From the NCBI GenBank assembly GCA_963782715.1, contig CAWAKU010000016.1:391425-455424 (forward strand): a DNA stretch of 64,000 nt, written 5' to 3'. The DNA comes from an uncultured Chloroflexia bacterium. Lineage in GTDB: Bacteria; Chloroflexota; Limnocylindria; Limnocylindrales; CSP1-4. A program made the translations under genes and the position numbers. Of the stretch, positions 1-27,354 are shown piece after piece. The first letter of the stretch is position 1, and every line of letters starts with the position of its first letter. The notes beneath the pieces are model-generated. The model did no database searches. It was not told the DNA's origin and worked only from the letters and a program-made list of their open reading frames with translations.

Positions 1-406
1 CGTCGTCCGCTACCTCGCCGACCGGATCGCCGTGCTCTACCTCGGGCGGATCATGGAGGTCGGCGATTCGGAGACCGTCTTCCGCGGCCCGAACCATCCG
101 TACACAGAGGCGCTGCTGTCCGCGGTCCCCAACGTGGACGGCGGCGAGCAGAAGCGGATCCTGCTCGAGGGCGAGATCCCGAGCCCGGCCAACCCGCCGT
201 CGGGCTGCGTCTTCAACACCCGCTGCCCGCGGGTCATCCGGGGCGTCTGCGAGGTCACGGAGCCGCCCCTGGTCGAGGTCGAGCCGGGCCACCTGATGTC
301 CTGCCACATCCCGATCGAGGAGCTGCGCACCCTCCAGCGCAAGGCGCCGCCGCCACGCGAGGACGCGCCCCTAGAGCTGGCCGATCCGGTCTTCGACGCC
401 GACTGA
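1..406 (+). CDS. oppF: Oligopeptide/dipeptide ABC transporter ATP-binding protein, C-terminal fragment (gene starts upstream of window)
   Basis: Translation contains the OppF/DppF C-terminal signature [12 protein letters not shown] and a CxFxxRCP cysteine motif; ORF is open to the window start. Confidence 0.8.
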
Positions 407-421
407 CGCCCCGCCGGGCCC

Positions 422-2473
422 TTAGAGCACCATCGCGATCCGCCGCGCGTCGTAGATCGCGGCATGGATGCTCCGGCTCGCGACGGCGTCACCGATGCGG
501 AAGAGCTGGTACGCGCCGTCCGGGTTGCTGACGATCGTCTGGGCCCGCCCGCCGATGTACGCCTCGAGGTCGACCTCGCCGCCGTTCGAGGAGCGCGGGA
601 CCAGGTCCAGGTAGACCTCGTCGTTCGGCACCGTCCCGTACTCGACGATGACCTGGTCCACGACCCGCTGCGTCGTCGTCCGCGTGTAGTCGTTCCAGAG
701 GTCAACCTCGAGCCGCCGATCGGCCGTCCGCCGGACCGCCCGGAGCCGGTGGTCGGGCGTCAGCCGGACGCCGGCCGCGTACAGCGTCCCGAGATAGGCC
801 GGATAGGCGGTCCCGGTGACCTCGTGGCCGACGTGCCGGTCGGGCGTGACGATCTCGAGCGACGACCCGGCGGCGACCAGGCGCTCGGCACAGGACAGCG
901 CGTCTTCGGTCCCGTGATCGTCGAACAGCAGCACCTCGCCCCGCGTCGGAGAGACCGCCCCGCCGACGATGTCCCAGGTCGAGACGACCAGGTCCTCCCC
1001 CTCGCTCAACACGGGCACGCGCGGCCGCCCGCCCGCCGCGACGACGACGACGTCCGGCGCGAGGGCCGCCACGACATCCCCGTCGGCGACCACCCCGAAC
1101 CGCAGGTCCACCCCGAGCACCCGGCACTCCGCGACCAGCCACTCGACGATCCCGATCAGGTCGCCTCGCCGCTGCGTCGCCCGGGCGGCCAGCACGACCT
1201 GACCGCCCGGCTGGTCGGCCGCCTCCAGCACCGTCACCAGGTGCCCGCGCTCCGCAGCGACCCGCGCCGCCTCCAGCCCACCCGGCCCGGCCCCGATGAC
1301 GACGACCCGTCGCCCCGGCCCGGCCGACCGCCCGACGACGTGCGGGATGGTCTCCTCCCGCCCGGTCGCCGGGTTGTGGATGCACAGCGCCTCCATCCCG
1401 AGATACAGCCGGTTGATGCACATCGACGCCCCGACGCACGGCCGGATCCGGTCGGCTTCGCCGGCCTCGAGCTTGCGGACGATGTGCGGGTCGGCCATGT
1501 GCGCGCGGGTCATGCCGACCATGTCCACGAGGCCCTCGCTGATGGCATACCGGGCCGTCGCCAGGTCCGGGATCCGGTTGGCGTGGAAGATGGGTAGGTT
1601 CACCCGCTCGCGGAAGCGGCCGGCGAACTGGAGCGCCGGCCCGAACGGCGTGCCCAGCCCCGGGATGACGTGCGAGATCGCCTCGTCGGTCGCGATCGAG
1701 CCCTTGATGATGTTGATGAAGTCGATGGTCCCGGTGTTCGCGAGCGTCCGGGCGATCTCGATGCCGTCAGCTTCGGTCAGCCCGCCCGGCACGTCCTCGC
1801 CGCCGGTCATCCGGATGCCGACGATGAAGTCCGGCCCGACCTTCTTGCGGATCGCCTCGAGGACCTCGATGGAGAAGCGCAACCGGTTCGCCAGCGACCC
1901 GCCGTACTGATCGGAACGCTGGTTGACGAGCGGCGACCAGAACTGGTCGATGAGGTGCCCGTAGGCCTCGAGCTCGAGCCCATCGAGCCCGCCGTCCCTG
2001 CAGCGCCGCGCCGCTTCCGCGTACGACGAGACGACACGACGGATGTCGGCGAGCTCCATCGCCTTCGGGAACGACCGGTGGGCCGGCTCGCGGACCGACG
2101 ACGACGAGATCGTCGGGAGCCAGTCGCCGTCGTCCCAGACCGTTCGCCGGCCGAGATGCGTCAGCTGGACCATCGTCGCGGCACCGTGGGCATGCATCCG
2201 GTCGGCCAGCTGCTGGAAGTACGGGATGATGTCGTCGTCGCCGGCGGACAGCTGGCCGAAGATCGGCGGCGAATCGGGCGCCACGTTGGTCGAGCCGCCG
2301 AACATCGACAGGGCGATACCGCCCTTCGCCTTCTCCTCCTGGTAGAGCTGGTAGCGGAGCTTCGGCTTGGCGTCCTCCGCGTAGGCCGGCTCGTGAGCCG
2401 TGCTCATGATCCGGTTCCGGAGCGTGAGGTGCCGGAGCTGGAACGGCTGGAGCAGCGGGTCGGCCGAGGTCAT
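422..2473 (-). CDS. OYE-family FMN oxidoreductase fused to FAD/NAD(P)-binding domain (2,4-dienoyl-CoA reductase / trimethylamine dehydrogenase / N-methylproline demethylase StcD-DgcA family), paralog 1
   Basis: 683-aa protein from internal Met (MTSADPLLQPFQLRHLTLRNR). It has an N-terminal TIM-barrel OYE region, a Cys cluster (RPCVGASMCINRLYLGMEALC) and a C-terminal GxGxxG dinucleotide fold (VVVIGAGPGGLEAARVAAERGHLVTVLE). The ATG lies 11 nt downstream of the mttB stop. Confidence 0.85.
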   Translation of the reverse strand: MTSADPLLQPFQLRHLTLRNRIMSTAHEPAYAEDAKPKLRYQLYQEEKAKGGIALSMFGGSTNVAPDSPPIFGQLSAGDDDIIPYFQQLADRMHAHGAATMVQLTHLGRRTVWDDGDWLPTISSSSVREPAHRSFPKAMELADIRRVVSSYAEAARRCRDGGLDGLELEAYGHLIDQFWSPLVNQRSDQYGGSLANRLRFSIEVLEAIRKKVGPDFIVGIRMTGGEDVPGGLTEADGIEIARTLANTGTIDFINIIKGSIATDEAISHVIPGLGTPFGPALQFAGRFRERVNLPIFHANRIPDLATARYAISEGLVDMVGMTRAHMADPHIVRKLEAGEADRIRPCVGASMCINRLYLGMEALCIHNPATGREETIPHVVGRSAGPGRRVVVIGAGPGGLEAARVAAERGHLVTVLEAADQPGGQVVLAARATQRRGDLIGIVEWLVAECRVLGVDLRFGVVADGDVVAALAPDVVVVAAGGRPRVPVLSEGEDLVVSTWDIVGGAVSPTRGEVLLFDDHGTEDALSCAERLVAAGSSLEIVTPDRHVGHEVTGTAYPAYLGTLYAAGVRLTPDHRLRAVRRTADRRLEVDLWNDYTRTTTQRVVDQVIVEYGTVPNDEVYLDLVPRSSNGGEVDLEAYIGGRAQTIVSNPDGAYQLFRIGDAVASRSIHAAIYDARRIAMVL

Positions 2474-2483
2474 CGGGCGTCGG

Positions 2484-4031
2484 TCAGACGTCGGAGTCCG
2501 GGAAGCTCGCCTTGCGCCGATCCATCCACTCGACGAGCTCGTCGTGGATCGCGTCGTCGAGCGGCGGCCGCTCGTACTCGGCCAGGCGCTTCTTCCAGCG
2601 GAGGTTCGCCCGCTGGGCGGCATCGAGCCCGCCGTCGATCTCCCACTGCTCGAAGCTGTCGTTGTTCGACAGCTCGGAGCGCCAGAACGCGTTCTCGAAG
2701 TTCGCCAGCGTGTGGGGCGAACCCAGGAAGTGCTGGCCGGGACCGCCGGCGAGCATGGCGTCGAGCGCGTAGCCGTTGTCGGTGACATCCACGCCCTTGA
2801 TGTAGGCCTCGGTCATCGACGCCTGATCCTCGTCGAGCATGAACTTCTCGTAGCCGATGGCGAGACCACCTTCGAGCCAACCGGCCGTGTGCAGGTTGAA
2901 GTTGACGCCGGCCTGCATCGTCGCCATGTAGCTGATCGCGCTCTCGTAGGCGGCCTGGTAATCGGGCAGTTTGGAGGCCGTGAAGTTGCCGCCACTCCGG
3001 AACGGCACGCCGAGCCGACGTGACAGCGCCGCGAGCACGAACAGGACCAGCTGCGGCTCCGGGGTGCCGAACGTCGGAGCGCCCGACTGCATCGACATCG
3101 ACGACGCGAACGAGCCGAAGATGACCGGCGCGCCGGGCCGGACGATCTGGCAGAAGGCCATCCCGGCCAGCGCCTCGGCGAGTGTCTGGGTCGCCTGGGC
3201 GGCGACGGTCACCGGCGCCATCGCGCCGCCGAGGATGAACGGCGTGATGAGCATGATCTGGTTGTTCTCGGCGTAGGCCTTCGCCGAGCCGAGCATGTTG
3301 AAGTCCCACGACATCGGCGAGTTGGCGTTGGCCAGGCCCATGATCACGTGCTCGCGGTCCATCGCCTCGGCACCGAACACGATGCGCGCCATGTCGACCG
3401 AATCCTGGGCACGGCTCGGGTGGGTCACGGAACCCATGAACGCCCGGTCCGAGTAGCGGATGTGGCTGTAGACCATCTCGAAGTGGCGCTTGTTGACCGG
3501 CAGGTCGACCGGCTCGCACAGCGTCCCGCCGCCGTGGTGGAGCGTCCGGCTGGTGTAGGTCAGCTTCACGAAGTTGCGGAAGTCCTCGATGGTCGCGTAA
3601 CGCCGGCCGTCGTCGAGGTTGTGGATGAAGGGCGAGCCGTAGGTCGGCACGAGGACCATGTACGGGTCGCCGATGACGACGCTGCGGGCCGCGTTCCGTG
3701 CCCGCTGGGTGAAGATGCGCGGCGCGGTCGCCTGGACCAGCGCCCGGCACATGCCGCGCGGGAAGCGGACCCGCTGGCCGGTCACGTCGGCGCCGGCCCG
3801 ACGGAAGATCTCGGTCGCGTCCGGATAGTTGACGATCTCGATGCCGACCTGCTCGAGGAGGGTGTCGGCGTTGGCCTCGATCTGCTCGAGCCCCTCGGTC
3901 GAGATGACCTCGACGGGGGCGAGCGTTCGGGTCAGGTACGGAACGGTCTCCATGTGGCGTGCCAGGCGCTCGGTCTGACGCGCCGCCCGGCCACGCCGGA
4001 CGCTGGGGTGTTCGAGGTCCGGGACAGCCAT
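2484..4031 (-). CDS. MttB-superfamily (trimethylamine:corrinoid methyltransferase-like) methyltransferase, non-pyrrolysine type
   Basis: 515-aa protein of typical MttB length and composition (TLLEQVGIEI, GGGTLCEPVDL, TPFILGGAMAPVTVA). No in-frame amber codon is needed. An alternative start at Met27 (METVPYL) is possible. Confidence 0.8.
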   Translation of the reverse strand: MAVPDLEHPSVRRGRAARQTERLARHMETVPYLTRTLAPVEVISTEGLEQIEANADTLLEQVGIEIVNYPDATEIFRRAGADVTGQRVRFPRGMCRALVQATAPRIFTQRARNAARSVVIGDPYMVLVPTYGSPFIHNLDDGRRYATIEDFRNFVKLTYTSRTLHHGGGTLCEPVDLPVNKRHFEMVYSHIRYSDRAFMGSVTHPSRAQDSVDMARIVFGAEAMDREHVIMGLANANSPMSWDFNMLGSAKAYAENNQIMLITPFILGGAMAPVTVAAQATQTLAEALAGMAFCQIVRPGAPVIFGSFASSMSMQSGAPTFGTPEPQLVLFVLAALSRRLGVPFRSGGNFTASKLPDYQAAYESAISYMATMQAGVNFNLHTAGWLEGGLAIGYEKFMLDEDQASMTEAYIKGVDVTDNGYALDAMLAGGPGQHFLGSPHTLANFENAFWRSELSNNDSFEQWEIDGGLDAAQRANLRWKKRLAEYERPPLDDAIHDELVEWMDRRKASFPDSDV

Positions 4032-4112
4032 CGGGTCTCCTCGGGATGCGGGCGCCGTTCGCGCGAGGTCGTGCCGGCCCCCATGGTACGGCGACCGACG
4101 CCGGTCCCCGCA

Positions 4113-6110
4113 TCAGAGTCGGCGGGCGAGTTCGCGTCCCTCGTAGAAGGCGAGACTGGCGCGCCGCGGTGCCACCGCGTCGCCGATCTGCTGGAACGTG
4201 ATGCCGTGGGCGGTGAGATCGGTGGCGAGGGCGGTCTCGGCGACGGGCGTCTCGGCGATGACGAGCGTATCGGCCTCGATGGTCGTTTCCGCGCTGGTCG
4301 TGTTGGTCCGGAGAGTCGCCGAGCCGTTCTGCCACGACAGGAGCGCGGTCCCGGTGATGGATCGGCCGGCGGCCCGCGCATACCGGGCGCGCAGCGGACC
4401 GTCGGCCGCGCTGTGGAACAGGCCGCCGGCCACGACCGGGGCCGCTGTCACGATCGTCACCTCGTGGCCGGTCTCGGCGAGGTGAAGCGCGGTCCCCAGG
4501 CCGCGCCAGTCGTTGAGGTCGTCGAGGACCAGGACGCGACGGCCGATCCGGCCCGCCGCCGTGCCGTCAAGCACGTCGTGGATCGCGACGACGTCCTCGT
4601 CGTCCACGCCGGGGAGCCGGTCGACCATCGGCAATGCCCGCTGGAACCCGGCCCGCGCCGGCCGCGCACCGGTGGCGACGACCACCTCGTCCGCCCCGAA
4701 CGACGCGACGGCGTCCGCCGTGGCGTCCGTGCCCAGCTGGACATCGACCCCGAGCGCCGCCAGCTGCCGGGCGTGCCACGCCAGCAGGTCCGTGATCTGG
4801 CCGCGCGACGGCTGCAGACCGGCCAGCCGGAACTGCCCGCCGAGCGCGCCGCTCCGCTCCCACAGCGTGACCGCGTGCCCACGCTCCGCCGCGACTCGGG
4901 CGGCCTCCAGTCCGGCCGGTCCCCCGCCGACGACCAAGACCCGTCGCGGGTCCGCCGCCGGCTCGAACCGGTCGCCGCCCCATTCGAACTCGCGTCCCGC
5001 CGATGGATTCACGAGGCACGAGATCCAGTAGTCGCGCGAGCGTCGACCCCAGCACAGCTGGTTGCACGAGATGCACGGGCGGACGTCGTCGGCATGACCG
5101 GCCCGTGCCTTCGCGACCAGGTGCGGGTCGGCGATCTGCCCGCGCACGATGCTGACCATGTCGGCATGCCCCGCGGCGAGGACAGCCTCGGCGGCGGCGG
5201 GCGTCCGGATGTGGCTCTCGGCCTGGACCATCGCGTTGCGGACGACCGCCTTGAGCGCGGCCGCGAACGGCTCGCCCAGCCGCTCGTCGTAGAGCGACGG
5301 CGGGATGATCTGGTGGAAGTCGAAGTACGAGCCGGTGCCGCAGGTGACGTAGTCCATGAGCCGCCGCTCGTCATGCCACGCCACGACCTCACACAGATCC
5401 GCGACGGACGGCATCGCCGGCGAGCCCGGATCCGCGCTGACCGCCAGCCCGACGATGAAGTCCTCCCCGCACGCCTCACGGATGCCGCCAAGGATCGCCG
5501 CCGAGAACCGCATCCGACCGTCGAACGACCCGCCCCAATCGTCCGTCCGGCGGTTCGACCACGAGCCCCAGAACTGGTCCACGACCGCGTGGTACGCGGC
5601 GAAGACCTCGACGCCATCGAACCCGCTCGCCCGCGCCCGTCTGGCGGCCGCGACGAAGCCATCGATCAGCTCGATGATCTCGGCCTCGGTCATGGCGTGA
5701 CTGCCGTCGGCGTCGTGGTACGACGGCAGGCCCGACGGCGACCAGTTGGCAGCGAACGAGTTGTCGGCGTCGCCGTGCTGGCCGACGTGATAGAGCTGGT
5801 GGATCAGCACGACGTCCGGGTTCGCCTCGCGGCAGGCGTCGGTGACCCGCCGGAACGCCGGGATGATGGCGTCGTCGCCGGGCCGGAAGTTGCCGCGGGT
5901 CAGGACGCCGGTCCGATGGATCGGCACCGGCTCCACGACGATCATGCCGGCGCCGCCGAGCGCCCGCTCCCGGTAGTAGCCGATGTGTCGCTCGCCGGGC
6001 AGGCCGTCCTCGGCCATGTTCGCGGTATGCGCGCCGAAGGTGATCCGGCTGCGGAGCGTGCGATGTCGGAGCTGGAGCGGTTCGAAGACGTGTGGGAACG
6101 CCCCCGTCAC
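4113..6110 (-). CDS. OYE-family FMN oxidoreductase fused to FAD/NAD(P)-binding domain, paralog 2 (StcD/DgcA/FadH-like)
   Basis: 665 aa. N-terminus MTGAFPHVFEPLQLRHRTLRSRI parallels paralog 1. It has the 4Fe-4S motif CISCNQLCWGRRSRDYWISC (C-x2-C-x3-C-x11-C) and GxGxxG (VLVVGGGPAGLEAARVAAERGHAVTLWE). The start codon abuts the stop of the upstream flippase-like gene. Confidence 0.85.
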   Translation of the reverse strand: MTGAFPHVFEPLQLRHRTLRSRITFGAHTANMAEDGLPGERHIGYYRERALGGAGMIVVEPVPIHRTGVLTRGNFRPGDDAIIPAFRRVTDACREANPDVVLIHQLYHVGQHGDADNSFAANWSPSGLPSYHDADGSHAMTEAEIIELIDGFVAAARRARASGFDGVEVFAAYHAVVDQFWGSWSNRRTDDWGGSFDGRMRFSAAILGGIREACGEDFIVGLAVSADPGSPAMPSVADLCEVVAWHDERRLMDYVTCGTGSYFDFHQIIPPSLYDERLGEPFAAALKAVVRNAMVQAESHIRTPAAAEAVLAAGHADMVSIVRGQIADPHLVAKARAGHADDVRPCISCNQLCWGRRSRDYWISCLVNPSAGREFEWGGDRFEPAADPRRVLVVGGGPAGLEAARVAAERGHAVTLWERSGALGGQFRLAGLQPSRGQITDLLAWHARQLAALGVDVQLGTDATADAVASFGADEVVVATGARPARAGFQRALPMVDRLPGVDDEDVVAIHDVLDGTAAGRIGRRVLVLDDLNDWRGLGTALHLAETGHEVTIVTAAPVVAGGLFHSAADGPLRARYARAAGRSITGTALLSWQNGSATLRTNTTSAETTIEADTLVIAETPVAETALATDLTAHGITFQQIGDAVAPRRASLAFYEGRELARRL

Positions 6111-7093
6111 GCGGTGGTCTCCTGCGCCGCCGCGGCTGCCTCCCGCCGTCGACGCAGCGCCACGAGCGCGATGACCCCGCCGATCGACGTCGTCGACAGG
6201 ATGACAAGGTGGACGAGCAGACCGAGCGCGAAGGCCGAATCGCGCGGGATCCCGAGGCTGTCGGCGATGGCCACGACCGTCAGCTCGAACGTGCCGACGA
6301 ACCCCGGCCCGGCCGGGACGATCGTGACGAGTGCCACGCCGCTGGTCATCAGCGCCGCCTGGGCGATCGTGAGTGGGACACCGACCGCCTGGCCAGCGGC
6401 GATGAAGGTGGTGATCGAGGCCGTCCAGGCCACCGCGCTGAAGGCGAGCGCCACGACCACCACTCGTGGCTGGGAGGCGACGGCAAGGCCCTCACGCAAC
6501 CGGCGCGCGAGCTCGAGCAGGCGCGGCCGACGTTCGATGATCGCAGTCACGCGGGCCGCCCCAGGCAGCCGGTGAGCGGCGATCCCGAGACCCAACACGA
6601 TGACCAGCAGTGAGACGAAAGCGAGCCCAAGGAGGACCGCACTGCTCATCGCCCCACGGACGCTCAGGACCAGGACCGCGATCGCAGCGATGGCCACGAC
6701 CATGATCGTGTCCACGACGCGCTCGACGACGACGGTGCCGAGGACCGTCGTCCGGCTGACGCCCTCGCCCTCGCCGAGCGCATGGCTTCGGTAGAGCTCG
6801 CCGAGCCGGGCCGGGAGGACGTTGTTGGCGAGATAGCCGATGTACGTGTAGCCCAGGACGCGCCGATAGGCGAGCGGCGCGATCGGTGCAAGGAGAGCCC
6901 GCCAGCGCGCCGCCCGTGCCCCGATATCGATGGTCGCGGTCACCAGCATGACCGCGATCCACGCCGGCGATGCGGTCCGCAGGACCTGGAATGCCGCGTT
7001 GATGTCGACCGAATGGATGAGGACCCAGATCGCGAACAGGCTGATGGCGATCCCGAGCGTCCCGCGGAGGAGCGCGCCTCGGCTGATTCGCAT
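6107..7093 (-). CDS. Flippase-like / lysylphosphatidylglycerol-synthase-TM-region (UPF0104) integral membrane protein
   Basis: 328 aa and very hydrophobic with about 8 predicted TM segments, resembling the UPF0104 family that commonly partners GT2 enzymes. Sits 8 nt downstream of the GT2 gene on the same strand. Confidence 0.65.
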   Translation of the reverse strand: MRISRGALLRGTLGIAISLFAIWVLIHSVDINAAFQVLRTASPAWIAVMLVTATIDIGARAARWRALLAPIAPLAYRRVLGYTYIGYLANNVLPARLGELYRSHALGEGEGVSRTTVLGTVVVERVVDTIMVVAIAAIAVLVLSVRGAMSSAVLLGLAFVSLLVIVLGLGIAAHRLPGAARVTAIIERRPRLLELARRLREGLAVASQPRVVVVALAFSAVAWTASITTFIAAGQAVGVPLTIAQAALMTSGVALVTIVPAGPGFVGTFELTVVAIADSLGIPRDSAFALGLLVHLVILSTTSIGGVIALVALRRRREAAAAAQETTA

Positions 7094-7100
7094 GTGGCGG

Positions 7101-7940
7101 TCAGTCCGGCCGGTGGCGGGCGTCGAGCTTGGGCGAGCGGCGCACGCGCAGTCGATGGAGCACGTAGCGGGCGACGACGCGGAGGGTCGACAGGCCGTAC
7201 ACGACGCTCCGCCGGAAGCCGACCGAAGACGCCTCCTCGAAGTAGCGAGTGGGCACCGCGACCTCGCCGATGCGGCCAGCCATGCCCGCCGCCACGACCT
7301 GGGCGATGAGCTCCTGGTCGAACACGAAGTCGTCGGAGTTGAGCTGGTAGGGCACGGTCTCGAGCAAGTGCCGGCTGTAGGCCCGCAGGCCCGTGTGGTA
7401 CTCGGACAGATGGAGCCCGAAGGCGCGGTTCTCGAGCCCGGTCAGGAAGCGGTTGCTGACGTACTTCCAGCGGGGCATGCCGCCGGCCAGCGGGTCGCCC
7501 AGGAAGCGGCTGCCGAGCATCAGATCGCGCGAGCCGTCGGCGATCGGCGCGATGAGCGCCGGGATCCGCGTGGCGTCGTACTGGTAGTCGGGGTGGAGCA
7601 TCACGACGATCTCGGCGCCGGCCGCGAGGGCCGCGTCGTAGCACGTCTTCTGGTTGCCGCCGTAGCCCCGGTTCTGGCTGTGGATGATGACGTCGAGCCC
7701 GAGCTGGCGGGCGATCTCGACGGTCTCGTCGCGCGACACGTCGTCGACCAGGATGATCCGGCCGACCAGGTCGTGCGGGATGTCGGCATAGGTCCGCTCG
7801 AGCGTCCGGGCGGCGTTGTAGGCGGGCATCACGACGACGAGTCGCGGTGGCGCGGCCGTCGTGTCGTCGAGCGTGGGCACGCGCGAAGGGTACCGCAGCC
7901 GGCGCCCCTCCCTGCGGGGACACCGAACCGTCATCGGCAT
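7101..7940 (-). CDS. GT2-family glycosyltransferase (polyprenol-phosphate sugar transferase, Dpm1/ArnC-like)
   Basis: VVVMPAYNAARTLERT...ILVDDVSRDETVEIA...VMLHPDYQYD motifs typical of GT-A fold GT2 enzymes. The exact start is uncertain. Confidence 0.8.
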   Translation of the reverse strand: MPMTVRCPRREGRRLRYPSRVPTLDDTTAAPPRLVVVMPAYNAARTLERTYADIPHDLVGRIILVDDVSRDETVEIARQLGLDVIIHSQNRGYGGNQKTCYDAALAAGAEIVVMLHPDYQYDATRIPALIAPIADGSRDLMLGSRFLGDPLAGGMPRWKYVSNRFLTGLENRAFGLHLSEYHTGLRAYSRHLLETVPYQLNSDDFVFDQELIAQVVAAGMAGRIGEVAVPTRYFEEASSVGFRRSVVYGLSTLRVVARYVLHRLRVRRSPKLDARHRPD

Positions 7941-7984
7941 GTGAGACGATGCGGGCCGCAGCCCAGCATCGGAGACAGCGTCCC

Positions 7985-8587
7985 ATGTTCGAACGACTCT
8001 TCGGCACCAAGGAGCAGGATCCCGCGATCGCGGAGCGCATCCCGCCCGGCCAGTACAAGACCGACAAGTTCCCGGTCCTGCACTACGGCTCGGTCCCGCA
8101 CACGGACCTGGCGACCTGGGACTTCAAGGTCTGGGGCGAGGTGGACTCGCCGTTCACGCTGTCCTGGAGTCAGTTCAAGGACCTGCCACGCAAGACCGTC
8201 GAGACGGACATCCACTGCGTCACCCGCTGGTCCAAGCTCGACACCACCTGGGAAGGCGTCGCCATCCAGACCATCCTCGAGCTGGCCGGCGTCCGCCCGA
8301 GCGCGACCCACGTCGTGTCGCACGCCGAGCAGGGCTACACCGCGAACGTGCCTCTGTCCGTGCTCGACGACGACGATGTCCTTCTCGCCGACACGTTCGG
8401 CGGCGTGCCGCTCGAGCTCGAGCATGGCTACCCGCTCCGCCTGCTCATCCCGAAGCGCTACTTCTGGAAGAGCAGCAAGTGGGTCCGGGGCCTCGAGTTC
8501 CTCGACCACGACCAGCTCGGCTTCTGGGAGCGCTACGGCTACAACAACGACGCCGACCCCTGGAAGGAAGAGCGCTTCAGCGAGTAG
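7985..8587 (+). CDS. Sulfite-oxidase-like molybdopterin-binding oxidoreductase (small cytoplasmic SO-family protein)
   Basis: 200-aa protein from internal Met (MFERLFGTKEQ) with the HCVTRWS Mo-cysteine motif and YPLRLLIP...YFWKSSKWVRGLEF C-terminal region characteristic of the YedY/SO family. Confidence 0.75.
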   Translation: MFERLFGTKEQDPAIAERIPPGQYKTDKFPVLHYGSVPHTDLATWDFKVWGEVDSPFTLSWSQFKDLPRKTVETDIHCVTRWSKLDTTWEGVAIQTILELAGVRPSATHVVSHAEQGYTANVPLSVLDDDDVLLADTFGGVPLELEHGYPLRLLIPKRYFWKSSKWVRGLEFLDHDQLGFWERYGYNNDADPWKEERFSE

Positions 8588-8656
8588 GCCGCGCCGACTC
8601 AGCTCCGCCTCGGCCCTCGCCGCGACCCGGGACCTTCCCGGTCGCTCCGCCCGCCG

Positions 8657-9508
8657 TCAGCCGGCGGAGAGTCCCGTGATGAGAGTGGCGAGTCGACGCG
8701 CGTCGGCGGTCCAGCCGGCACCGAGCGACAGCGCGGTCGCCTCGTCGCCGACGGCAAACCCCCCGGCGATGATCGGCACCGCTGGAGCCTGCCTGCGGGC
8801 CGCGGCGATCATCCGTCGTGCGGCTGGAAGGTGAGCAGTGACGGCCACGCTGACGACGACGGCGAGGAGGTTGTCCGACTCGGCCATCGCGGCGACCAGC
8901 GACTCCGGCGGGGTGTCGGGGCCCAGGTTCAGGACACCGTAGCCACCACCTCGCAGGATGTCGGTGAGCATCGTCACGCCCAGACCGTGACGCTCGCCGG
9001 AGGGCATCGCGACCAGCACGGTCCCTCGCTGGCGACCCCGGCGACGAAATCTCGGACCCATGCGGCCCACGATCGAGGTGGCGACCCCGCTGGCCACATG
9101 CTCGCGCTCGATGCCGATCTCGCCGTCGCGCCACGAGGCCCCGATCGCGTGCAGGGCCGGGCCCAGGACCTCGACGTAGATGTCGGCGGGTTCCATGCCG
9201 GATGCCATCGCCGCCTCCACGACCTGCCAGCCTCCCTCGACGTCACCCGCCAGCATCCGCAGGCGAAGTCGGTCGGACCACGGCGCCGCGGGATGGCGTC
9301 TCCCGCCCGCTCGTGGTGTCGACCCGGTCCGGGCGCCACGGGTCCGCAGGTCCGCGACGTCGTGCGGATCAACCCTCCAGGTCCCACCGACCTTCTCGGC
9401 CGGCAGCATGCCGAGCCTGACGTAGCGGTAGACCGTCATGTAGTGGACGCCAAGACGATCGGCGGCCTCATGCAGGGTGATCGACTCGGGAAGGCCGGGG
9501 GAGGTCAT
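8657..9508 (-). CDS. CarH/LitR-type coenzyme-B12-dependent light-responsive transcriptional regulator (MerR/excisionase-type HTH + B12-binding domains)
   Basis: N-terminal Xis/MerR HTH (ITLHEAADRLGVHYMTVYRYVRLGMLP). Four-helix B12-binding_2 domain with the CarH signature W-x9-EH (WRDGEIGIEREH). Rossmann B12-binding domain with ExHxxG (GERHGLG) and PIIAGG. Confidence 0.85.
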   Translation of the reverse strand: MTSPGLPESITLHEAADRLGVHYMTVYRYVRLGMLPAEKVGGTWRVDPHDVADLRTRGARTGSTPRAGGRRHPAAPWSDRLRLRMLAGDVEGGWQVVEAAMASGMEPADIYVEVLGPALHAIGASWRDGEIGIEREHVASGVATSIVGRMGPRFRRRGRQRGTVLVAMPSGERHGLGVTMLTDILRGGGYGVLNLGPDTPPESLVAAMAESDNLLAVVVSVAVTAHLPAARRMIAAARRQAPAVPIIAGGFAVGDEATALSLGAGWTADARRLATLITGLSAG

Positions 9509-9521
9509 GCGTCAACCATGG

Positions 9522-10313
9522 TCAGGGCGCGAGGGTACCCGCGAAGACCTGCCATGCGAGCAGCGACTTGGCAACGAGACTGAGGATGATGTAAGCGCGC
9601 TCCCCGAAGATGTACGAGCGCCAGCGGCCGACGCGCCGGTACTGGAGCCACATGTTGAGCGCGAAGATGTTGAAGAAGATGAACAGCGAGATGAAGATCG
9701 CGTAGACGAAGGCGGGCGGTTCGGCGGCGCTCCCGGGCGACACGAGGTAGACACCCACGGCCAGCCACGGGGCGATGCCGATGACGCAACCGAGCCAGAA
9801 CGGCCACAGGGAGCCGCCTGGCCCCTCGTACTTCTCCTGGACGGCTCCGAAGAAGATCATCGCGGCGTTGGCCGCGAAGATCCCGATGAGGGCTGCGATG
9901 TCGCTGATGCCGGTGAGCATGGCGATGAGCACGATCATCACCGATGACGACAGCGAGTACTCGGCCCAACGGTAGTAGTTGTGGCTAGCTTCGAGCCCGG
10001 AGATGTAGCGCCCGAAGATGCCCGGGGCGGCGACCAGCCAGTGGAAGCCCGCGGACAGGGCGAGGAAGAGGGCGACACCGAGGCCGATCGAGACCTCGAA
10101 TAGCGTGGTCGGAGCGCCGGCCGGTGTCCCTGGTGGACCCTCCATGAACGTCGCGGTGACGGGCAGGAGGAAGGCCGTGCTGAGAGCCACGATGGCGACC
10201 GCCTGCAGCGCATGGATGATCCCCATCCCGATGTTCCATCGGCGAAGGGAGGTGATCCGGGAGGCAGGCATGGCCAGCAGGGTGGAGGATGTGGCGGGGC
10301 TCGTGGCGGTCAT
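9522..10313 (-). CDS. Heliorhodopsin (inverted-topology 7TM retinal protein)
   Basis: 263 aa with 7 TM helices. Landmark residues match heliorhodopsin 48C12 numbering with a +11 offset: H34/H91 (48C12 H23/H80), counterion E118 in RWAEYS (E107), and Schiff-base Lys K249 in the last helix (LSLVAKSLLAW). N-terminal LRRWNIGMGIIHALQA motif. Confidence 0.8.
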   Translation of the reverse strand: MTATSPATSSTLLAMPASRITSLRRWNIGMGIIHALQAVAIVALSTAFLLPVTATFMEGPPGTPAGAPTTLFEVSIGLGVALFLALSAGFHWLVAAPGIFGRYISGLEASHNYYRWAEYSLSSSVMIVLIAMLTGISDIAALIGIFAANAAMIFFGAVQEKYEGPGGSLWPFWLGCVIGIAPWLAVGVYLVSPGSAAEPPAFVYAIFISLFIFFNIFALNMWLQYRRVGRWRSYIFGERAYIILSLVAKSLLAWQVFAGTLAP

Positions 10314-10334
10314 GGTGGTCCTTCGATCAATGAA

Positions 10335-10367
10335 GGCGGCGGGACCGGGCGTACCGGATCCCGCCGC
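10335..10367 (-). terminator. GC-rich hairpin between fasciclin gene stop and heliorhodopsin start (putative intrinsic terminator)
   Basis: Perfect 10-bp stem GGCGGCGGGA...TCCCGCCGCC enclosing a second CCGG..CCGG palindrome. On the minus strand it is followed by TTCATTGATCG, so the U-tract is weak as expected in high-GC taxa. Confidence 0.45.
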
Positions 10368-10386
10368 CAGGTTTGGCGGAGGCTGG

Positions 10387-10932
10387 TCAGCTGGCCGGCG
10401 GCAGGATGACCTGGTCGATGACGTGGATGATCCCGTTGGAGGTCATGATGTCGGTCTTGACGACCTGGGCGGTGTCGTTGAGATAGACCTTGCCGTCCTT
10501 GACGGCGATGGCGATCTTGGACCCCTCGACCGAGTCGGCGGAGGTCAGCTTGACCACCTGGTCGGCGGTCACCTTGCCCGACACGACGTGGTAGAGAAGG
10601 ATCTTCTTGAGGGCCGCCGGATCGGCCAGCAGCTTGTCCAGGGTACCGGCCGGCAGCGCCGCGAAGGCGGCATCGGTCGGTGCGAAGATGGTCAGCGGAC
10701 CGTCGCTCTTGAGCGTGTCGACGAGACCCGCGGCCGTCGCGGCTGTGAGCAGCGTCTTGAACGTGCCGGCGCCGTCCGCCGTGGCGACGATGTCGCCGAG
10801 TGCTGCCGACGGGGCGGCAGTGGCCGGAACCGCTGTCGGGGCTGGGGTGGCTGGTTTTGGCGTCGCCGCGGTCGCGCAGGCGGAGACAGCGAAAGCCGCC
10901 ACCGTCAGCGAGATGAACATGAAGCGCTTCAT
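10387..10932 (-). CDS. Fasciclin (FAS1) domain lipoprotein
   Basis: Signal peptide with lipobox ([11 protein letters not shown]), Ala/Pro/Thr-rich linker and a FAS1 domain ([14 protein letters not shown]...ILLYHVV...[12 protein letters not shown]). Confidence 0.9.
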
Positions 10933-13779: not shown

Positions 13780-14190
13780 TCAGTGGGCGCAGCCGCGCGG
13801 CGCGCCGCCGTCGTCGGCAGTCCGGAAGCTCGAGCCGCAGCCACACGCCGCGACCGCGTTCGGGTTGTTGACCGTGAAGCCGGCGCCCATCAGGGTGTCG
13901 ACGTAGTCGATCTGCGAGCCCTTGAGCAGGTCCACGCTCTGGCCGTCGACGTAGACCTTGATGCCGCTCACGTCGAGCACGCGATCCTCGGGCGTCGGGG
14001 CGTCTTCGAGCATCATCCCGTAGCGGAAACCCGAGCAGCCGCCGGAGTAGACGTACACCCGCAGGCCGATGGCCGGATTGGTCTCTTCCTTGGTCAGCTC
14101 GGTGAGCTTGCTGACGGCTGCGTCGGTGAGCGACACCACGGTCGTCGTCAGCGGCTGCAGGTCGATCGTCGTCGGCTGCTGGTCGATCAT
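13780..14190 (-). CDS. erpA: HesB/IscA/SufA-family Fe-S cluster insertion protein (A-type carrier)
   Basis: 136 aa from MIDQQPTT. Has VYVYSGGCSGFRY and C-terminal CGCGSSF, the three conserved A-type carrier cysteines. Confidence 0.85.
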   Translation of the reverse strand: MIDQQPTTIDLQPLTTTVVSLTDAAVSKLTELTKEETNPAIGLRVYVYSGGCSGFRYGMMLEDAPTPEDRVLDVSGIKVYVDGQSVDLLKGSQIDYVDTLMGAGFTVNNPNAVAACGCGSSFRTADDGGAPRGCAH

Positions 14191-14316
14191 CGGGCGGTTC
14201 CCTCCGGGAGGTCTCGGGACGTGGGACGGTCGTGATGCGTGCGTCGTGTTCGCACATCGTACGCAGGACAACGGGTTTCGACAAGCATCCGCGCCGAAAC
14301 TCCCGTACCCGCGTCC

Positions 14317-15552
14317 CTAGGCCGAATTGTCCAGGCGCTCGACGATGGTCGCGATGCCCTGGCCGACGCCGATGCACATGGTGGCGAGTCCGTAGCGGCC
14401 GCCGGTCCGGCGCAGCTCGTGGGTCAGCATCGTGATGAGGCGGCCGCCGCTCATGCCGAGCGGATGGCCGAGCGCGATGGCGCCGCCGTTGACGTTGACC
14501 CTGGCCGGATCGAGCCCGAGCTCGTCCATGCACACCAGAGACTGCGATGCAAAGGCCTCATTGAGCTCGATCAGGTCGAGGTCCGCGACGCCGATCCCGG
14601 CACGCTCGAGCGCCTTGCGGGTGGCCGGCACCGGGCCGACACCCATGATCGCCGGGTCCACCCCGGCGACGGCCGTCGAGACGACCCGGGCGAGCGGCCG
14701 CAGGCCCAGCTCGCGGGCGCGATCCGCCTCGACGAGCAGGACCGCGGATGCGCCGTCGTTGATGCCGGAGCTGTTGCCGGCGGTGACGGTGCCCTCGGGT
14801 CGGAAGGCGGGCTTGAGCCGCGCCAGCGCGTCGATGGTCGAGTCGGCGCGCGGATGCTCGTCGCGGTCGATGACGAGCGGGTCGCCCTTGCGTTGCGGGA
14901 CGCTGATCGGGACGATCTGGTCGGCGAACCGGCCGGCCTCGATGGCGGCCACGGCCCGCTGCTGGCTCTCGAGCGCGAACGCATCCTGGCGCTCGCGCGG
15001 GACGTTCCAGCGCTCGGCCACGTTCTCGGCGGTCTCGCCCATCGAATACGGGTGATGGCGCTCAGCCAGGCGCGGGTTGACGAACCGCCAGCCGAGGGTC
15101 GTGTCCGCCATCTCGCGGGCGCCCCGGTCGTATGGCCCTTCGGCCTTGAGCTGGACGTACGGCGCGCGGGTCATCGATTCGACGCCGCCGCCGATGAACA
15201 CGTCGCCGTCGCCGACCGCGATCGCGTGCGCCGCGGAGTTGATCGCCTGGAGTCCGGACCCGCACAGCCGATTGACGGTCAGCCCACCGACCTCGACCGG
15301 GAAATCCGCCAGCAGGAGTGCCATCCGGGCGACGTCGCGGTTGTCCTCGCCGGCCTGGTTGGCGCAACCGAGGATGACGTCCTCGACAAGGGCTGGATCG
15401 AGTCCGGCGCGATCGACGACGGCGCGCAGGACGGCGGCGGCAAGATCGTCCGGCCGGACGCTCGCGAGCGCTCCGCCGTAGCGGCCGATGGGGGTGCGGA
15501 CAGCCTCAACGATCCAGGCGTCGCGCAGCGGCCGGTGGGTGTCTCGGGTCAT
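14317..15552 (-). CDS. paaJ: Acetyl-CoA C-acyltransferase (thiolase; beta-ketoadipyl-CoA thiolase PaaJ/FadA-like)
   Basis: 411 aa. [11 protein letters not shown], active-site [18 protein letters not shown] and [16 protein letters not shown] are all present. Confidence 0.9.
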
Positions 15553-15569
15553 GCCGTTGATGGTAGCGG

Positions 15570-16748
15570 CTATGGACGGGTCGCCCAGCCGGCGAAGGTC
15601 GAGATCGCGCCCGGCTCGTCGATGCGGACGGAGGTCCCAGCCCGGGTGTCGAGCCGGAACAGCCCCGCCGTCGCTGTGCCGGGATCGCCCATGCTGAGGA
15701 TCACCGCCGAATTGTCCGGCGCGACTCCGGCGATCGTCGCGTCGACCGTCGATGCGATGGTGGCGTGCTCGTCGGGTGTCGCTGGTTTCGAGCCCGTGGG
15801 TCGGACGATGCGCACCAGGCGGATGGTGTCCTTGCCCCCGAGGGTGACCCACTGCCCGGTGCCGGCGGCGTCCCACGTGTGATCGACGATGGCCGGGTCC
15901 GGGCCGGGCTGGCGTTCGATGAGCCAGGCGAGCGGGGTGTCCTGGCCCGCCCGCTGCTCGATGATCGCCCGTTCCGACGTCGTCGCTCCGTCCGACACCG
16001 AATCGCTGACGAACGCCCCGTCCGCGCCGTACGGCCGATCGCGACCGGTCGCCGGCCACGGTGGTCGTGCCCCGGCTGCGAACGTCCCGTCGAGTCCCAG
16101 GACGCCCGCTGTGGACGAATCGGTACTCCCGTCGTAGCGCGACGCCAGCAGGCCCGAACCGTCTGCAGCCCAGACGTCCGCGGCATCGACTCCCTCCGGG
16201 TCGACGATGGTGGTGGTCCGGCCGGAGGCCGGGTCGACGAGCGTCACTCCGGTCGCGTGAGTGATCGCCAGCCGGCCATCCGGACCCCAGGCCGGCGTCC
16301 CCGCGGACACGACGAGCGGCGCCCGCGCCGGTGCCTGGAGGTCGAAGACCAGCCGGCGGGCGACCGGATCGCCCCCGGCGGTCTGGTCGAACGGTCCTTC
16401 CACGGCGATGGTCAGGAAGCCGCCCGGGCTGACCCGGATCGGCTCGCCCTCGAGGATCGTCGTGCCTTCGGGAAGCCCGGCGACGACGTTCGGGATGGAC
16501 GCGACGGGAACACGGCGGCCGTCGGGTGCGACGGCCTCGACGATCAGGGCGCCCGTGAGCACGGCCGCGACCTGGGGCAGCGTGGCCACGAAGGCATCGG
16601 CGGTGCCGAGGTCGACCGCCGCGCTGGCGCTGGGTGAGGTGGTTCCGGTGGCGGTCGGGAGCGTGGACGCATCCGGGCGCGAGGTGGCGGTCGACTGGCC
16701 ACAGGCCACCAGCGACAGCGCGGCGAGGATGACCAGCGGGATGCGCAT
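15570..16748 (-). CDS. Secreted lipoprotein with TolB-like beta-propeller repeats
   Basis: SPII signal [18 protein letters not shown], then repeated DG..L....G..LVD blades. Embedded between paaJ and paaH. Confidence 0.65.
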
Positions 16749-16750
16749 CG

Positions 16751-18006
16751 ATCGTGGGACGCGACGGCCGCCCGGACCGTGACGGGCCGTCACCGAGGCT
16801 GCCGGCGCCGAGGCCAGCAATGGCGGTGCCGGGTCGAACCGGGGTCCGCGGCCCTCCTCGGCGCGGAGCGCCGCCAGCACGCGTCGCCGGACCACCGAGC
16901 TCGCGCGCCCGCTCGAACGGTCCGCTCGGGTGGTTCGCCCCAAGGCGCATCGCGAGGTCGATATGGGCCGGGGTCGCGACATCGTCACCGGCCGCCCGGT
17001 AGGCCTCGTTGACGACGGCCAGCGTGAGACGCCGGGCGATCGTGGCGCCGTCGAGTCGATCGTCGCGGTCTGTCGGCCGACCGAACCCCGGCGCAGGGCC
17101 GATGCGCTGTCCCTCGTCGTCGTACAGGTAGAAGCCCGAATCGGTCTTGCGCCCAAGGCTGCCGTCGGCGACCAGCCGCTCCTGGATGGGCGAGGGGCGG
17201 AAACGCTCGGCCAGCGGGTCGGCGGCGGCGACCGACCCGGCGAAGACGCCACGCGCCGCCGCGAGGTTGACGTCGAGGCCGACCAGGTCCATGAGCTCGA
17301 ACGGACCCATCGGGTAGCCGTCGGCTCGCATGGCCGCATCGATCCCCTCGACCGACGCGTCACCGGCCTCGAGCAGGGCCAGGGCCTCCAGGGTGAACGG
17401 CCGGTTGACGCGGTTGACGATGAACCCCGGTGTGTCACGACAGCGCACGGGGACCTTGCCCCACGCCGTCATGAGCGCGGTGGCCCGGTCGAGGATGGCC
17501 GGGTCGGCGGTGGCCGTCGCGACCACCTCGACCAGCGGCATGACCGGCGCCGGGTTGAAGAAGTGGAGGCCGATGACCCGTTCCGGGCGACGGGCCATGA
17601 CGGCGATGGCAGCCACCGACAGGGCGCTGGTATTCGTCGCCAGGATCGAGCTCGGCGGCGTCGACGCGTCGAGGGCCGCGAAGATGGCCTGCTTGGCCTC
17701 GAGATCCTCGAGCGCCGCCTCGACGACGAGGTCTGGCCCGGCGGCGGCGAGATCGTGGAGAGTGGGCGCCTCGTGGAGGCCGGCGAGCCGCTCGCCCACC
17801 CAACGGGTGGCGGAGTCGGCGTCAAGGTCCAGTCGCGCGGCGCGCCGTTCGAGGCCGCTTCGGACACGCGTCCGGCCGCGCTCGATGGCGGCCGCATCGA
17901 TGTCGTGGATCCAGACCTGGTGTCCCGCCTCGAGCGCGAGCTGGGCGATCCCGGCGCCCATCGTGCCGGCACCGACCACGCCGACCGGGTCGTGGCGATC
18001 GCGCAT
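16751..18006 (-). CDS. paaH: 3-hydroxyacyl-CoA dehydrogenase with duplicated C-terminal domain (PaaH/FadB-type). The 3' end is unresolved because there is no in-frame stop
   Basis: [25 protein letters not shown]-binding fold, [13 protein letters not shown], and two 3HCDH C-domains. The reading frame then runs without a stop through the lipoprotein and thiolase genes, forming the 1548-aa ORF in the track. A frameshift or indel is likely near 16.75-16.87 kb. Confidence 0.7.
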
Positions 18007-18008
18007 GG

Positions 18009-18557
18009 TCAGACGGGCTTGATGGCTTCGAACGGTTGACGGCAGTCCGCGCAGTAACGGATCGTCCGGCACTGGGTCGGCCCGAAGGCGTTCTCGAGGA
18101 CCGTCCGGCGCGAGCCGCAGTGCGGGCACGGGACGCGCGGCTCGAGCTCGATGAGGCTGGACGCGTCCGCGGGGCCGGGCGGAGCGATCCCGGCGGCCAG
18201 CAGCGCGGCGCGACCGGCGTCGCTGATCCGTTCGCTCGTCCAGGGCACCTCGAAGGTGGCCGAGACTGCGACCGGGCGCCCGAAGGCGGCCAGGCGCGTC
18301 GCGATCGCCGCCTTGATGAGCTCGAGCGCCGGGCAGCCGACGAAGGTCGGCAGGATCTCGACCCGGATGACGCCAGCCGCGTCGATCTCGACGCGATGGA
18401 CGATGCCGAGGTCGACGACGGACAGCATCGGGAGCTCGGGGTCGGGGACCTCCGCGAGGGCCGCGTGGACCGCGGCCTCGTCCGGGCGTGGTGTCCGGCC
18501 CGTGACGGCTCCGGCGCGCGCCCGCGCGATGCCGACCTGGGTCCCCGCCTCGCTCAC
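18009..18557 (-). CDS. paaD: 1,2-phenylacetyl-CoA epoxidase subunit D (PaaD; DUF59/SufT-like N-domain + C-terminal Zn ribbon)
   Basis: [19 protein letters not shown]59 motif and CPHCGS...CADC zinc ribbon. The GTG start overlaps the paaC stop (GTGA). Confidence 0.8.
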
Positions 18558-21280: not shown

Positions 21281-21355
21281 CCTGTCGTGAACCCCTAACT
21301 AACGCTCGTTAGGGGCAAGAGACTAGGGATGTGGCGGGCGTCCGTCAAGGTCCCC

Positions 21356-22135: not shown

Positions 22136-22146
22136 CAGTCGCCCGG

Positions 22147-22938: not shown

Positions 22939-22967
22939 CGGCTGTCTCCTCGCTGCGCGCTCGGCGA

Positions 22968-23777: not shown

Positions 23778-23850
23778 GGCGGTCTCGCCGCCGCCGCTCG
23801 CCGGCGTGTCGCTCCTCGCGGTCTCGGTCACGAACGCTCCTCGACTTCGT

Positions 23851-27353: not shown

Positions 27354-27354
27354 C

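Follow-up and report, generated by a model that had tools for sequence, protein, structure and literature searches.

A quaternary nitrogen has no lone pair available for flavin-dependent oxidation. The known pathways of betaine catabolism therefore open with a Rieske oxygenase, with BHMT or with an MttB-type corrinoid methyltransferase (PMC3950512, PMC12478193). The locus described here lies on contig CAWAKU010000016.1 of an uncultured Limnocylindrales bacterium of the Chloroflexota (assembly GCA_963782715.1), of which a stretch of 64,000 nucleotides, referred to throughout as the window, was analysed. It contains a gene for a non-pyrrolysine MttB-superfamily methyltransferase flanked by genes for two flavoproteins, FlavA and FlavB, that combine an OYE-type FMN domain with a FAD/NAD(P)-type domain. 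Judged from sequence, it is likely that this cluster supports a corrinoid-dependent first step followed by flavoprotein demethylation, and on balance the three core genes are expected to form a catabolic module for the stepwise N-demethylation of a betaine, most likely of the proline betaine type. A hybrid corrinoid-plus-flavin pathway had been put forward from the same DNA in an earlier reading (the original prediction) and is supported in outline, with gene linkage that is conserved among relatives and recurs in Rhizobiaceae; however, that reading also had three enzymes strip several methyl groups from one betaine, and here the evidence points more to proline-betaine-type substrates.

Aerobic demethylation of glycine betaine by MtgBCD, followed by further demethylation steps, has been described in Ruegeria pomeroyi (Mausz et al. 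2025, PMC12478193). As in the window, a non-pyrrolysine MttB-family enzyme is found in an aerobic heterotroph, its corrinoid and pterin partners can be unlinked from the MttB gene, and the later demethylations fall to separate dehydrogenases. The window cluster differs in having no MtgC, MtgD, RamA or MTHFR gene nearby and in its partners, which are OYE-type flavoproteins of the HpbA family rather than of the dimethylglycine dehydrogenase (DMGDH)/sarcosine oxidase type, and its substrate is probably different. The GbcAB-DgcAB-EtfAB route for glycine betaine and dimethylglycine is found in Pseudomonas and Vibrio natriegens (PMC12093977). An Azospirillum DgcA belongs to the FlavB subfamily (54.5% identity, with the same three-cysteine motif), whereas the window is without DgcB, an electron transfer flavoprotein (ETF) and the Rieske protein GbcAB, and FlavB branches with the HpbA type.

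Proline betaine is catabolized through the stc genes in Sinorhizobium meliloti. The equivalent pathway for proline and hydroxyproline betaine in Paracoccus denitrificans uses the Rieske enzyme HpbB1C1 and the flavoprotein HpbA (Kumar et al. 2014, PMC3950512). Common to this system and the proposed one are a special enzyme for the quaternary nitrogen and a flavoprotein for the tertiary nitrogen, the second step falling to an HpbA-type two-domain flavoprotein, to one of which FlavB is 55% identical. The first step would be carried out by a corrinoid methyltransferase in the window, in contrast to the O2-dependent Rieske oxygenase of the Hpb pathway, and the window cluster has no HpbD racemase, HpbR regulator, OpuAC-type transporter or putA gene nearby but does have FlavA, from a second subfamily. 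Eubacterium limosum, an anaerobic acetogen, possesses an MttB-superfamily enzyme, MtpB, that converts proline betaine to N-methylproline, where its pathway stops, and that feeds the Wood-Ljungdahl pathway. The window MttB would likewise turn proline betaine into N-methylproline, a likeness to MtpB (named in PMC13080624) in described function. Trimethylamine dehydrogenase (TMADH; 2tmd/1djn) and histamine dehydrogenase (3k30) share the three-domain architecture, and FlavA has their four 4Fe-4S cysteines, but they are distant relatives whose Cys30 and Tyr169/His172 positions are not kept in the window proteins.

In a literature search that combined MttB with DgcA, StcD, N-methylproline or stachydrine, MttB was nowhere described alongside an OYE-type HpbA/DgcA-family flavoprotein, and mttB annotations in Limnocylindria metagenome-assembled genomes (MAGs) have been mentioned without gene context (PMC11264602). 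The claim that the arrangement is not a described pathway thus holds for this pairing but not for its principle: the general idea that aerobes follow a corrinoid first step with dehydrogenase reactions dates from 2025 (PMC12478193), and the MttB/OYE-type pairing is a variant of it.

The MttB homologue and its flavoprotein partners

Pfam and NCBIfam profile searches of the window open reading frames (ORFs) agree with the predicted arrangement of an MttB gene between two flavoprotein genes on the minus strand, in a run of five ORFs (Table 1). The MTTB profile is matched over its full length (residues 12-511 against profile positions 2-500 of 500) with no internal stop, while the model for pyrrolysine (Pyl)-type MttB, TIGR02369, scores 228.6 bits against a cut-off of 525 and the 515-codon ORF is uninterrupted; no NCBIfam model exceeds its cut-off for any of the three core proteins. 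Matches to solved structures score 609 bits for PDB 4yyc, about 371-372 bits for D. hafniense MtgB (2qne/9yce) and 93 bits for Pyl-MttB (7xcl). By these comparisons the protein is placed as a non-pyrrolysine member of the superfamily, as had been proposed, closest to the 'aerobic' type and not a true trimethylamine MttB, and it is predicted to be a quaternary-amine:corrinoid methyltransferase. Structure 4yyc, titled 'Putative trimethylamine methyltransferase', is presumably a Sinorhizobium meliloti protein, and it clusters with an S. meliloti locus (L005) in the MttB tree. The nearest homologues (80-95% identity) come from Chloroflexota or Candidatus Limnocylindria soil MAGs, followed by soil members linked to MtgC genes (61-72%) and Sinorhizobium and Paracoccus members (54-57%). 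The glycine betaine-contacting residues of MtgB are Y97, R312, H348 and F356 in D. hafniense numbering (PMC13080624); equivalents of the first three are kept in the window MttB, with F356 replaced by Gly and I352 by Trp, a pattern also seen in 4yyc and in all MtgC-linked relatives.

Over its whole length FlavB, with its OYE-like FMN domain and FAD/NAD(P)-type domain, shares 52-56% identity with Paracoccus proteins named N-methyl-L-proline N-demethylase HpbA by the NCBI annotation pipeline, a comparison that used these pipeline-named proteins, with the genetically tested P. denitrificans protein outside the alignment. It is HpbA of P. denitrificans that has been genetically proven to be an N-methyl-L-proline demethylase (PMC3950512). 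Identity is 55% to HpbA of P. aminovorans, 56% to an MttB-adjacent protein of Shinella and, as given above, nearly as high to the Azospirillum DgcA-type protein (locus L093), whose gene lies in a cluster of gbcA, gbcB, a GlxA regulator gene, the DgcA-type gene, an Fe-S protein gene, etfA, etfB and proVW. Such an arrangement corresponds to dgcAB_fixAB, in which dgcA is accompanied by dgcB (Fe-S, DUF3483) and ETF genes (PMC12093977). In a neighbour-joining tree rooted with FlavA, which took in one DgcA-type sequence only, Limnocylindria FlavB is sister to the HpbA-type group to the exclusion of the DgcA-type sequence in 200 of 200 bootstraps. FlavB therefore groups by sequence with the HpbA/StcD/DgcA family of N-methyl-amino-acid demethylases and, within it, with the HpbA (N-methylproline) type. 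The guessed position of StcD on S. meliloti pSymA (395-444 kb) contained no homologue. A C-x5-C-x11-C motif is present in every aligned FlavB/HpbA-type member (FlavB of the window and L001, HpbA of L092, L091 and L088), and the FlavB/HpbA/DgcA subfamily keeps three of four cluster cysteines, the second Cys of the CxxCxxxC...C motif of TMADH and 2,4-dienoyl-CoA reductase (DCR) being Ala; the type of Fe-S cluster in HpbA/DgcA enzymes may differ from that of TMADH. An 878-aa gene call joining MTTB and Oxidored_FMN domains (P0096, on a 310-kb contig) is probably a merged call of MttB and a downstream FlavB through a lost stop or frameshift, and not a true fusion.

FlavA shares about 33% identity with FlavB, and because of this low value the two are assigned to two old, distant subfamilies; the earlier description of the pair as paralogous is accurate if distant paralogues are meant. 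FlavA carries a complete CxxCxxxCx11C (4Fe-4S-type) motif, with all four TMADH cluster cysteines aligned, and is 56-58% identical to a rhizobial and roseobacter subfamily annotated only as 'FAD-dependent oxidoreductase'. In TMADH, Cys30 forms the 6-S-cysteinyl FMN, and Tyr169 and His172 are active-site positions. When FlavA is aligned to 1djq, the chain of the C30A mutant, Thr falls at position 30, Phe opposite Tyr169 and Tyr opposite His172; in FlavB the Cys30 position is Glu. With neither the covalent-FMN cysteine nor the Tyr169/His172 pair conserved, neither flavoprotein is predicted to be a trimethylamine, dimethylamine or histamine dehydrogenase. The family originally proposed for both proteins, OYE plus FAD/NAD(P) demethylases, is thus borne out for FlavB through DgcA and HpbA (StcD type), while the suggested resemblance to trimethylamine and dimethylamine dehydrogenases is weak.

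By phmmer score, the closest solved structures to the flavoproteins are NCR (6qkg) and DCR (1ps9) at 210-239 bits, compared with 160-175 bits for TMADH and 139-171 bits for histamine dehydrogenase; the highest-ranking NCBIfam model, a mycofactocin-system OYE model, does not reach its cut-off. Together with phenylacetate and enoyl-CoA hydratase genes 10-17 kb away, these matches could be taken to mean that the flavoproteins are NAD(P)H-dependent reductases of the enoate or dienoyl-CoA type, or that MttB is a non-methyltransferase, and that the genes are neighbours by chance. This absence of any functional link is considered very improbable. Tyr166, the catalytic residue of the DCR FadH of E. 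coli, aligns with Ala in FlavA (1ps9 alignment), and the DCR scores (210-226 bits) indicate a far weaker likeness than the 52-58% identity to the HpbA/DgcA family (52-56% for FlavB with its HpbA-type relatives). In addition, MttB is strongly conserved over many MAGs, does not cluster with non-methyltransferase members of its family, and is paired with flavoproteins in an independent lineage of another phylum, as described below. On these alignments FlavA and FlavB are judged not to be 2,4-dienoyl-CoA or enoate reductases, in line with the original prediction.

Gene neighbourhoods in Limnocylindria and Rhizobiaceae

Species-representative genomes were scanned for MttB relatives, and the loci were screened with a tblastn panel. 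Clade 1, comprising MttBs at least 81% identical to that of the window, contains 19 loci, all from Limnocylindria or 'Chloroflexia' MAGs; clade 2 (61-72% identity) includes Actinomycetota, Gaiellales, other Chloroflexota (Limnocylindrales among them) and Proteobacteria. In 15 of the 19 clade-1 loci the gene directly upstream of MttB is FlavA, and in 6 of 18 FlavB follows downstream; FlavA is accordingly the most constant flavoprotein partner of the clade-1 MttB, as a member of an uncharacterised subfamily.

The pairing recurs in Rhizobiaceae. Sinorhizobium fredii has a LysR regulator gene and MttB convergent with FlavA-like and OpuAC genes, and within 17 kb beyond these are a GlxA regulator, Rieske HpbBC-like genes and a FlavB-like gene; Shinella sp. 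PSBB067 has a LysR regulator, MttB and, after a 37-nt gap, a FlavB-like gene, with unrelated flanks. These flavoprotein-linked rhizobial MttBs form a separate, basal lineage in the neighbour-joining tree, so the association arose on two or more occasions, as would be expected of a functional link more than of inherited gene order. On the S. fredii SMH12 plasmid (L089), the 20-kb island at 14000-34000 holds, along with the Rieske HpbBC-like demethylase and MttB-family genes, FlavA-like, FlavB-like and OpuAC binding protein genes, LysR and GlxA regulators and an M24/creatinase-like peptidase.

FlavA-like genes of Proteobacteria are often located near a FlavB-like gene. In Mesorhizobium, the neighbours of one are an enolase-superfamily gene and genes for LysR and GlxA regulators, and there is an MttB gene 10 kb away; a Pseudosulfitobacter operon contains FlavB-like, proline-racemase-family, NAD(P)-binding and FlavA-like genes with an ornithine cyclodeaminase (OCD) gene upstream. 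Shinella zoogloeoides and Rhizobium anhuiense share the order ETF-ETF-cupin-FlavB-like, a divergent TetR gene, and P5CR-like-substrate-binding protein-ProW-ProV-FlavA-like-Ldh_2 family, and in Rhizobium sp. ACO-34A betaine transporter genes and catabolic genes of the D-hydroxyproline type surround the FlavA-like gene. Such neighbourhoods suggest N-methylated derivatives of proline or hydroxyproline. The MttB gene of the window stands where the gene for the first-step enzyme sits in the proline-betaine context, and tblastn found no Rieske HpbBC, HpbD, LysR or TetR regulator, or OpuAC/ProVW transporter near the window cluster.

Clade-2 MttB genes are almost always found in MtgC-DUF1638-MtgD-RamA-MttB operons. 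MTHFR comes next in 34 of 63 loci; about 9 have a DMGDH-like gene (DAO + GCV_T domains) close by, and about 10 have ETF genes there. This gene content matches the aerobic MtgBCD glycine betaine route (PMC12478193), and the same MtgC-linked pattern occurs in Paracoccus, Sinorhizobium and Azoarcus, in the last beside betA/betB. The window cluster could by analogy serve glycine betaine, with MttB as MtgB, FlavB as a DgcA-like dimethylglycine demethylase and FlavA acting on sarcosine, so that three enzymes would fit three methyl groups. The position of the window MttB, nested among MtgC-linked MttBs with 61-72% identity, would suit this assignment, as would the retention of Y97, R312 and H348 and the near-equal identity of FlavB to the DgcA-type protein of the Azospirillum gbcAB-dgcAB-etf cluster and to HpbA. 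It is nevertheless regarded as unlikely, while counting as a serious rival. The FlavB tree favours the HpbA type over the DgcA type; tblastn with Azospirillum DgcB, EtfA and EtfB gave no match in the window or the clade-1 loci, although dgcB and ETF genes accompany dgcA (PMC12093977); and most clade-1 relatives have FlavA alone rather than both flavoproteins. The later-step enzyme of MtgC-linked loci, where present, is DMGDH-like with ETF and not OYE-type, the FlavA-like contexts elsewhere are proline- or hydroxyproline-like and not glycine-like, and F356 is not kept, though this is equally so in the MtgC-linked clade. A complete glycine betaine-type operon was reached through a match to a Limnocylindria-type MtgC on a 2.24-Mb contig (L099, ERZ25039533 contig_16909); its genes encode a DMGDH-like protein (split by frameshifts), EtfB, EtfA, IclR, MtgC, a 348-aa protein, Virulence_fact, Pterin_bind, RACo activase, MTTB and MTHFR.

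An Opp/Dpp-type ATP-binding cassette (ABC) transporter is convergent with the cluster in each of the 18 clade-1 loci long enough to show it, and in relatives it is complete, with ATPase, two permeases and an SBP_bac_5 binding protein. It is the only neighbour so constant, occurring also at the four loci without flavoproteins, and it may be asked whether the transporter is the true partner of MttB, importing some other N-methylated substrate such as a different amino-acid betaine or a peptide product methylated at its N-terminus. The distant relationship of its binding protein to solved ones would accommodate this, as would clade-1 locus L020, in which a DMGDH-like gene follows the binding-protein gene. 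However, the transporter is convergent and not co-transcribed, the clade-1 loci all belong to one order, such that shared gene order may be simple inheritance, and the same enzyme families in Proteobacteria sit with OpuAC/ProVW-type betaine transporters; this alternative is quite improbable. Two apparent links to proline betaine genes were also discarded: an Opp-type transporter near an HpbA-like gene in Pannonibacter is just a generic homologue (26-37% identical), and the enolase-superfamily gene past the binding-protein gene in L010, L011 and L020 is a generic mandelate racemase/acid-sugar dehydratase relative, with no HpbD among its named matches. Locus L020, which lacks FlavA and FlavB, has an IclR-like regulator gene (9139-9780) upstream of MttB, and the gene after the binding-protein gene (18052-19844) encodes DAO and GCV_T domains of the dimethylglycine/sarcosine dehydrogenase-like type, which may represent a swap of the second-step enzyme type.

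Proposed pathway and corrinoid partners

In the proposed betaine demethylation pathway, MttB would, from its family membership, strip one methyl group off the quaternary nitrogen onto the Co(I) of a corrinoid protein, from which a pterin-binding methyltransferase would unload it onto tetrahydrofolate. MttB would in this way replace the Rieske oxygenase (HpbBC or Stc2-4) of the known aerobic pathway. The HpbA-like FlavB, FlavA or both would then, as homology and context suggest, oxidatively demethylate the resulting tertiary N-methyl amino acid with release of formaldehyde, the electrons probably leaving via the Fe-S cluster to ETF or via the nucleotide-binding domain. Because of the identity of the flavoprotein partners, proline betaine and hydroxyproline betaine (stachydrine-type plant betaines) are tentatively favoured as the substrate class, a choice given slightly less than even weight.

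Several observations weigh against this interpretation, of which the weakest point is the absent corrinoid machinery. MtgC, MtgD, RamA, DUF1638, ETF and folate genes were found within 10 kb of MttB in none of the 19 clade-1 loci, and none of 17 clade-1 MAGs appears among the MtgC-linked loci of the same genome scan. Four of the 19 loci have no flavoprotein within 10 kb, the FlavA subfamily has no characterised enzyme, and the FlavB placement is subject to the DgcA-type sampling noted above. No proline or hydroxyproline catabolic gene or OpuAC betaine-type binding protein lies near the cluster; the sole conserved transporter is of the peptide/opine type, and its binding protein has no informative relative, the best solved ones scoring 118 bits and binding diverse ligands. 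In the neighbour-joining tree, clade 1 is monophyletic and nested inside the MtgC-linked, presumably glycine-betaine-type, group. A set of 25 alignment columns that split clade 1 from MtgC-linked MttBs, of which rhizobial flavoprotein-linked MttBs have 9-10 and controls 1-3, was at first taken as convergence between the flavoprotein-linked lineages; this was dropped. L023, the nearest sister of clade 1, is MtgC-linked with DMGDH-like and ETF genes nearby and has 14 of the 25 signature columns, including five of the six 'convergent' positions. Because L023 already has most of these columns, the MttB sequence appears to give no independent sign of a new specificity.

Within the window, tblastn with MtgC, MtgD, RamA, DUF1638, MetF2, folD, ETF-QO, DgcB, EtfA/B, GbcA/B and OpuAC returned nothing convincing, consistent with the original statement that DgcB and MtgA-type partners are missing. 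The accompanying statement that the window has no corrinoid protein needs qualification, since one minus-strand gene encodes a protein with B12-binding domains (Table 1), but it stands for a methyltransferase corrinoid protein. As the missing partner this candidate was ruled out by its N-terminal helix-turn-helix domain, its Wx9EH motif of CarH-type light sensors, its low identity to MtgC (20-23%) and its absence from relatives: the gene is not found in L001/L006, L008, L009 and L019, which share the gene order, and L007 has a partial match of 36% identity. The protein, which also carries an E-x-H-x-x-G motif, is assigned from these features as a CarH/LitR-type light-responsive regulator. Its gene is followed by genes for a heliorhodopsin and a fasciclin-domain protein, and the trio may be a heliorhodopsin unit under light control. 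In close relatives the Oxidored_molyb and LON_substr_bdg genes adjoin each other; in the window the trio stands between them as an insertion.

Limnocylindria MAGs commonly encode MtgC-type corrinoid proteins, and among the loci scanned no contig or MAG was found to carry both the MtgC type and a clade-1 MttB. The Ruegeria mtgB paralogues are unlinked to mtgC and mtgD (PMC12478193). By analogy, it is plausible that partners of the MtgC/MtgD/RamA type, which the proposed mechanism would need, are encoded elsewhere in the genome. A self-contained quaternary-amine demethylase of MttB and FlavA, without dedicated MtgC, MtgD or RamA, would explain both the corrinoid partners missing at 19 loci and the lack of an MtgC-linked paralogue in 17 MAGs. 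In such a system the cobamide used by MttB might be free or bound in another way, and the Fe-S flavoprotein might provide reducing power or process the methyl group; this two-protein reading is considered highly unlikely.

Flanking genes and significance

The core genes are part of a co-directional minus-strand run (Table 1) that begins with the GT2 gene and is bounded upstream by a divergent Oxidored_molyb gene. From the coordinates, GT2 and the flippase-like gene are separated by 7 nt, the flippase-like gene and FlavA overlap by 4 nt, and the gaps are 81 nt between FlavA and MttB and 10 nt between MttB and FlavB; a GAGGAG ribosome-binding site precedes the MttB ATG. The GT2 ORF runs into the divergent gene, and its L001 orthologue has 257 aa, so that the true GT2 start probably lies about 20 codons further downstream than 7940. 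The operon had been predicted to run upstream into these two genes: they are indeed co-directional and close, but the order from FlavA is flippase-like gene, then GT2, and both lie outside the module. They occur in nine of the 19 clade-1 loci (absent, for example, from L002 and L012-L016) and are taken as lineage-specific, co-transcribed neighbours with an unrelated role, probably in the cell envelope. Downstream, the 3′ end of an OppD/F-type ATPase gene is convergent with FlavB across a 15-nt gap, confirming the convergent peptide/opine-type ABC ATPase that had been noted. A promoter and terminator consensus scan of 1-9600 gave no match, such a scan being uninformative for Chloroflexota, and G+C content is about 70% across the whole window.

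Table 1. Features of the window, in order of position
Feature	Length	Position	Strand	Basis or remark
OppD/F-type fused ABC ATPase, 3′ end		2-406	plus	80% identity to L002 OppDF C-terminus
FlavB	683 aa	422-2473	minus	Pfam Oxidored_FMN (E=7.6e-53) + Pyr_redox_2
Non-pyrrolysine MttB-superfamily methyltransferase	515 aa	2484-4031	minus	PF06253 MTTB, 690 bits, E=1.4e-207
FlavA	665 aa	4113-6110	minus	Pfam Oxidored_FMN (E=4.9e-47) + Pyr_redox_2
Flippase-like membrane protein	328 aa	6107-7093	minus	LPG_synthase_TM (Pfam/NCBIfam)
GT2 glycosyltransferase, polyprenyl-phosphate sugar transferase-like	279 aa	7101-7940	minus	Glycos_transf_2 (Pfam/NCBIfam)
Oxidored_molyb gene, divergent		7847-8587	plus	upstream boundary of the minus-strand run
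B12-binding protein		8657-9508	minus	HTH_17 (N-terminal) + B12-binding_2 + B12-binding
CarH/LitR-type, heliorhodopsin and fasciclin-domain gene trio		8657-10932	minus	
Heliorhodopsin gene		9522-10313	minus	second gene of the trio
Phenylacetate region		18009-24158	minus	PaaD, PaaC and PaaA-like genes, TetR regulator, two enoyl-CoA hydratases
Inosine-uridine nucleoside hydrolase family gene		46794-47864		

The phenylacetate region has a gene order common to L001 and is apparently unrelated to the cluster. A gene of the inosine-uridine nucleoside hydrolase family adjoins MttB or separates MttB from the ABC transporter in L002 (11574-12530), L007, L011, L013 and L014; the window copy is 43 kb off and only 35% identical.

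To our knowledge, the Limnocylindria, which are abundant soil Chloroflexota, have no cultured, biochemically studied members, and the clade-1 MttB is highly conserved across many soil metagenomes. Sinorhizobium fredii is culturable and genetically tractable, and the MttB-flavoprotein pairing is therefore testable there. If the proposed pathway is true, catabolism of the proline betaine type can dispense with the Rieske oxygenase by opening with an O2-independent, B12-dependent step, and the first methyl group would be kept as methyl-tetrahydrofolate instead of being lost as formaldehyde. There would be a function to test for the FlavA subfamily of about 660 aa, which is widespread among rhizobia and roseobacters, and the pathway would caution against taking every 'mttB' in a soil MAG as a sign of trimethylamine or methanogenesis-type methylotrophy.

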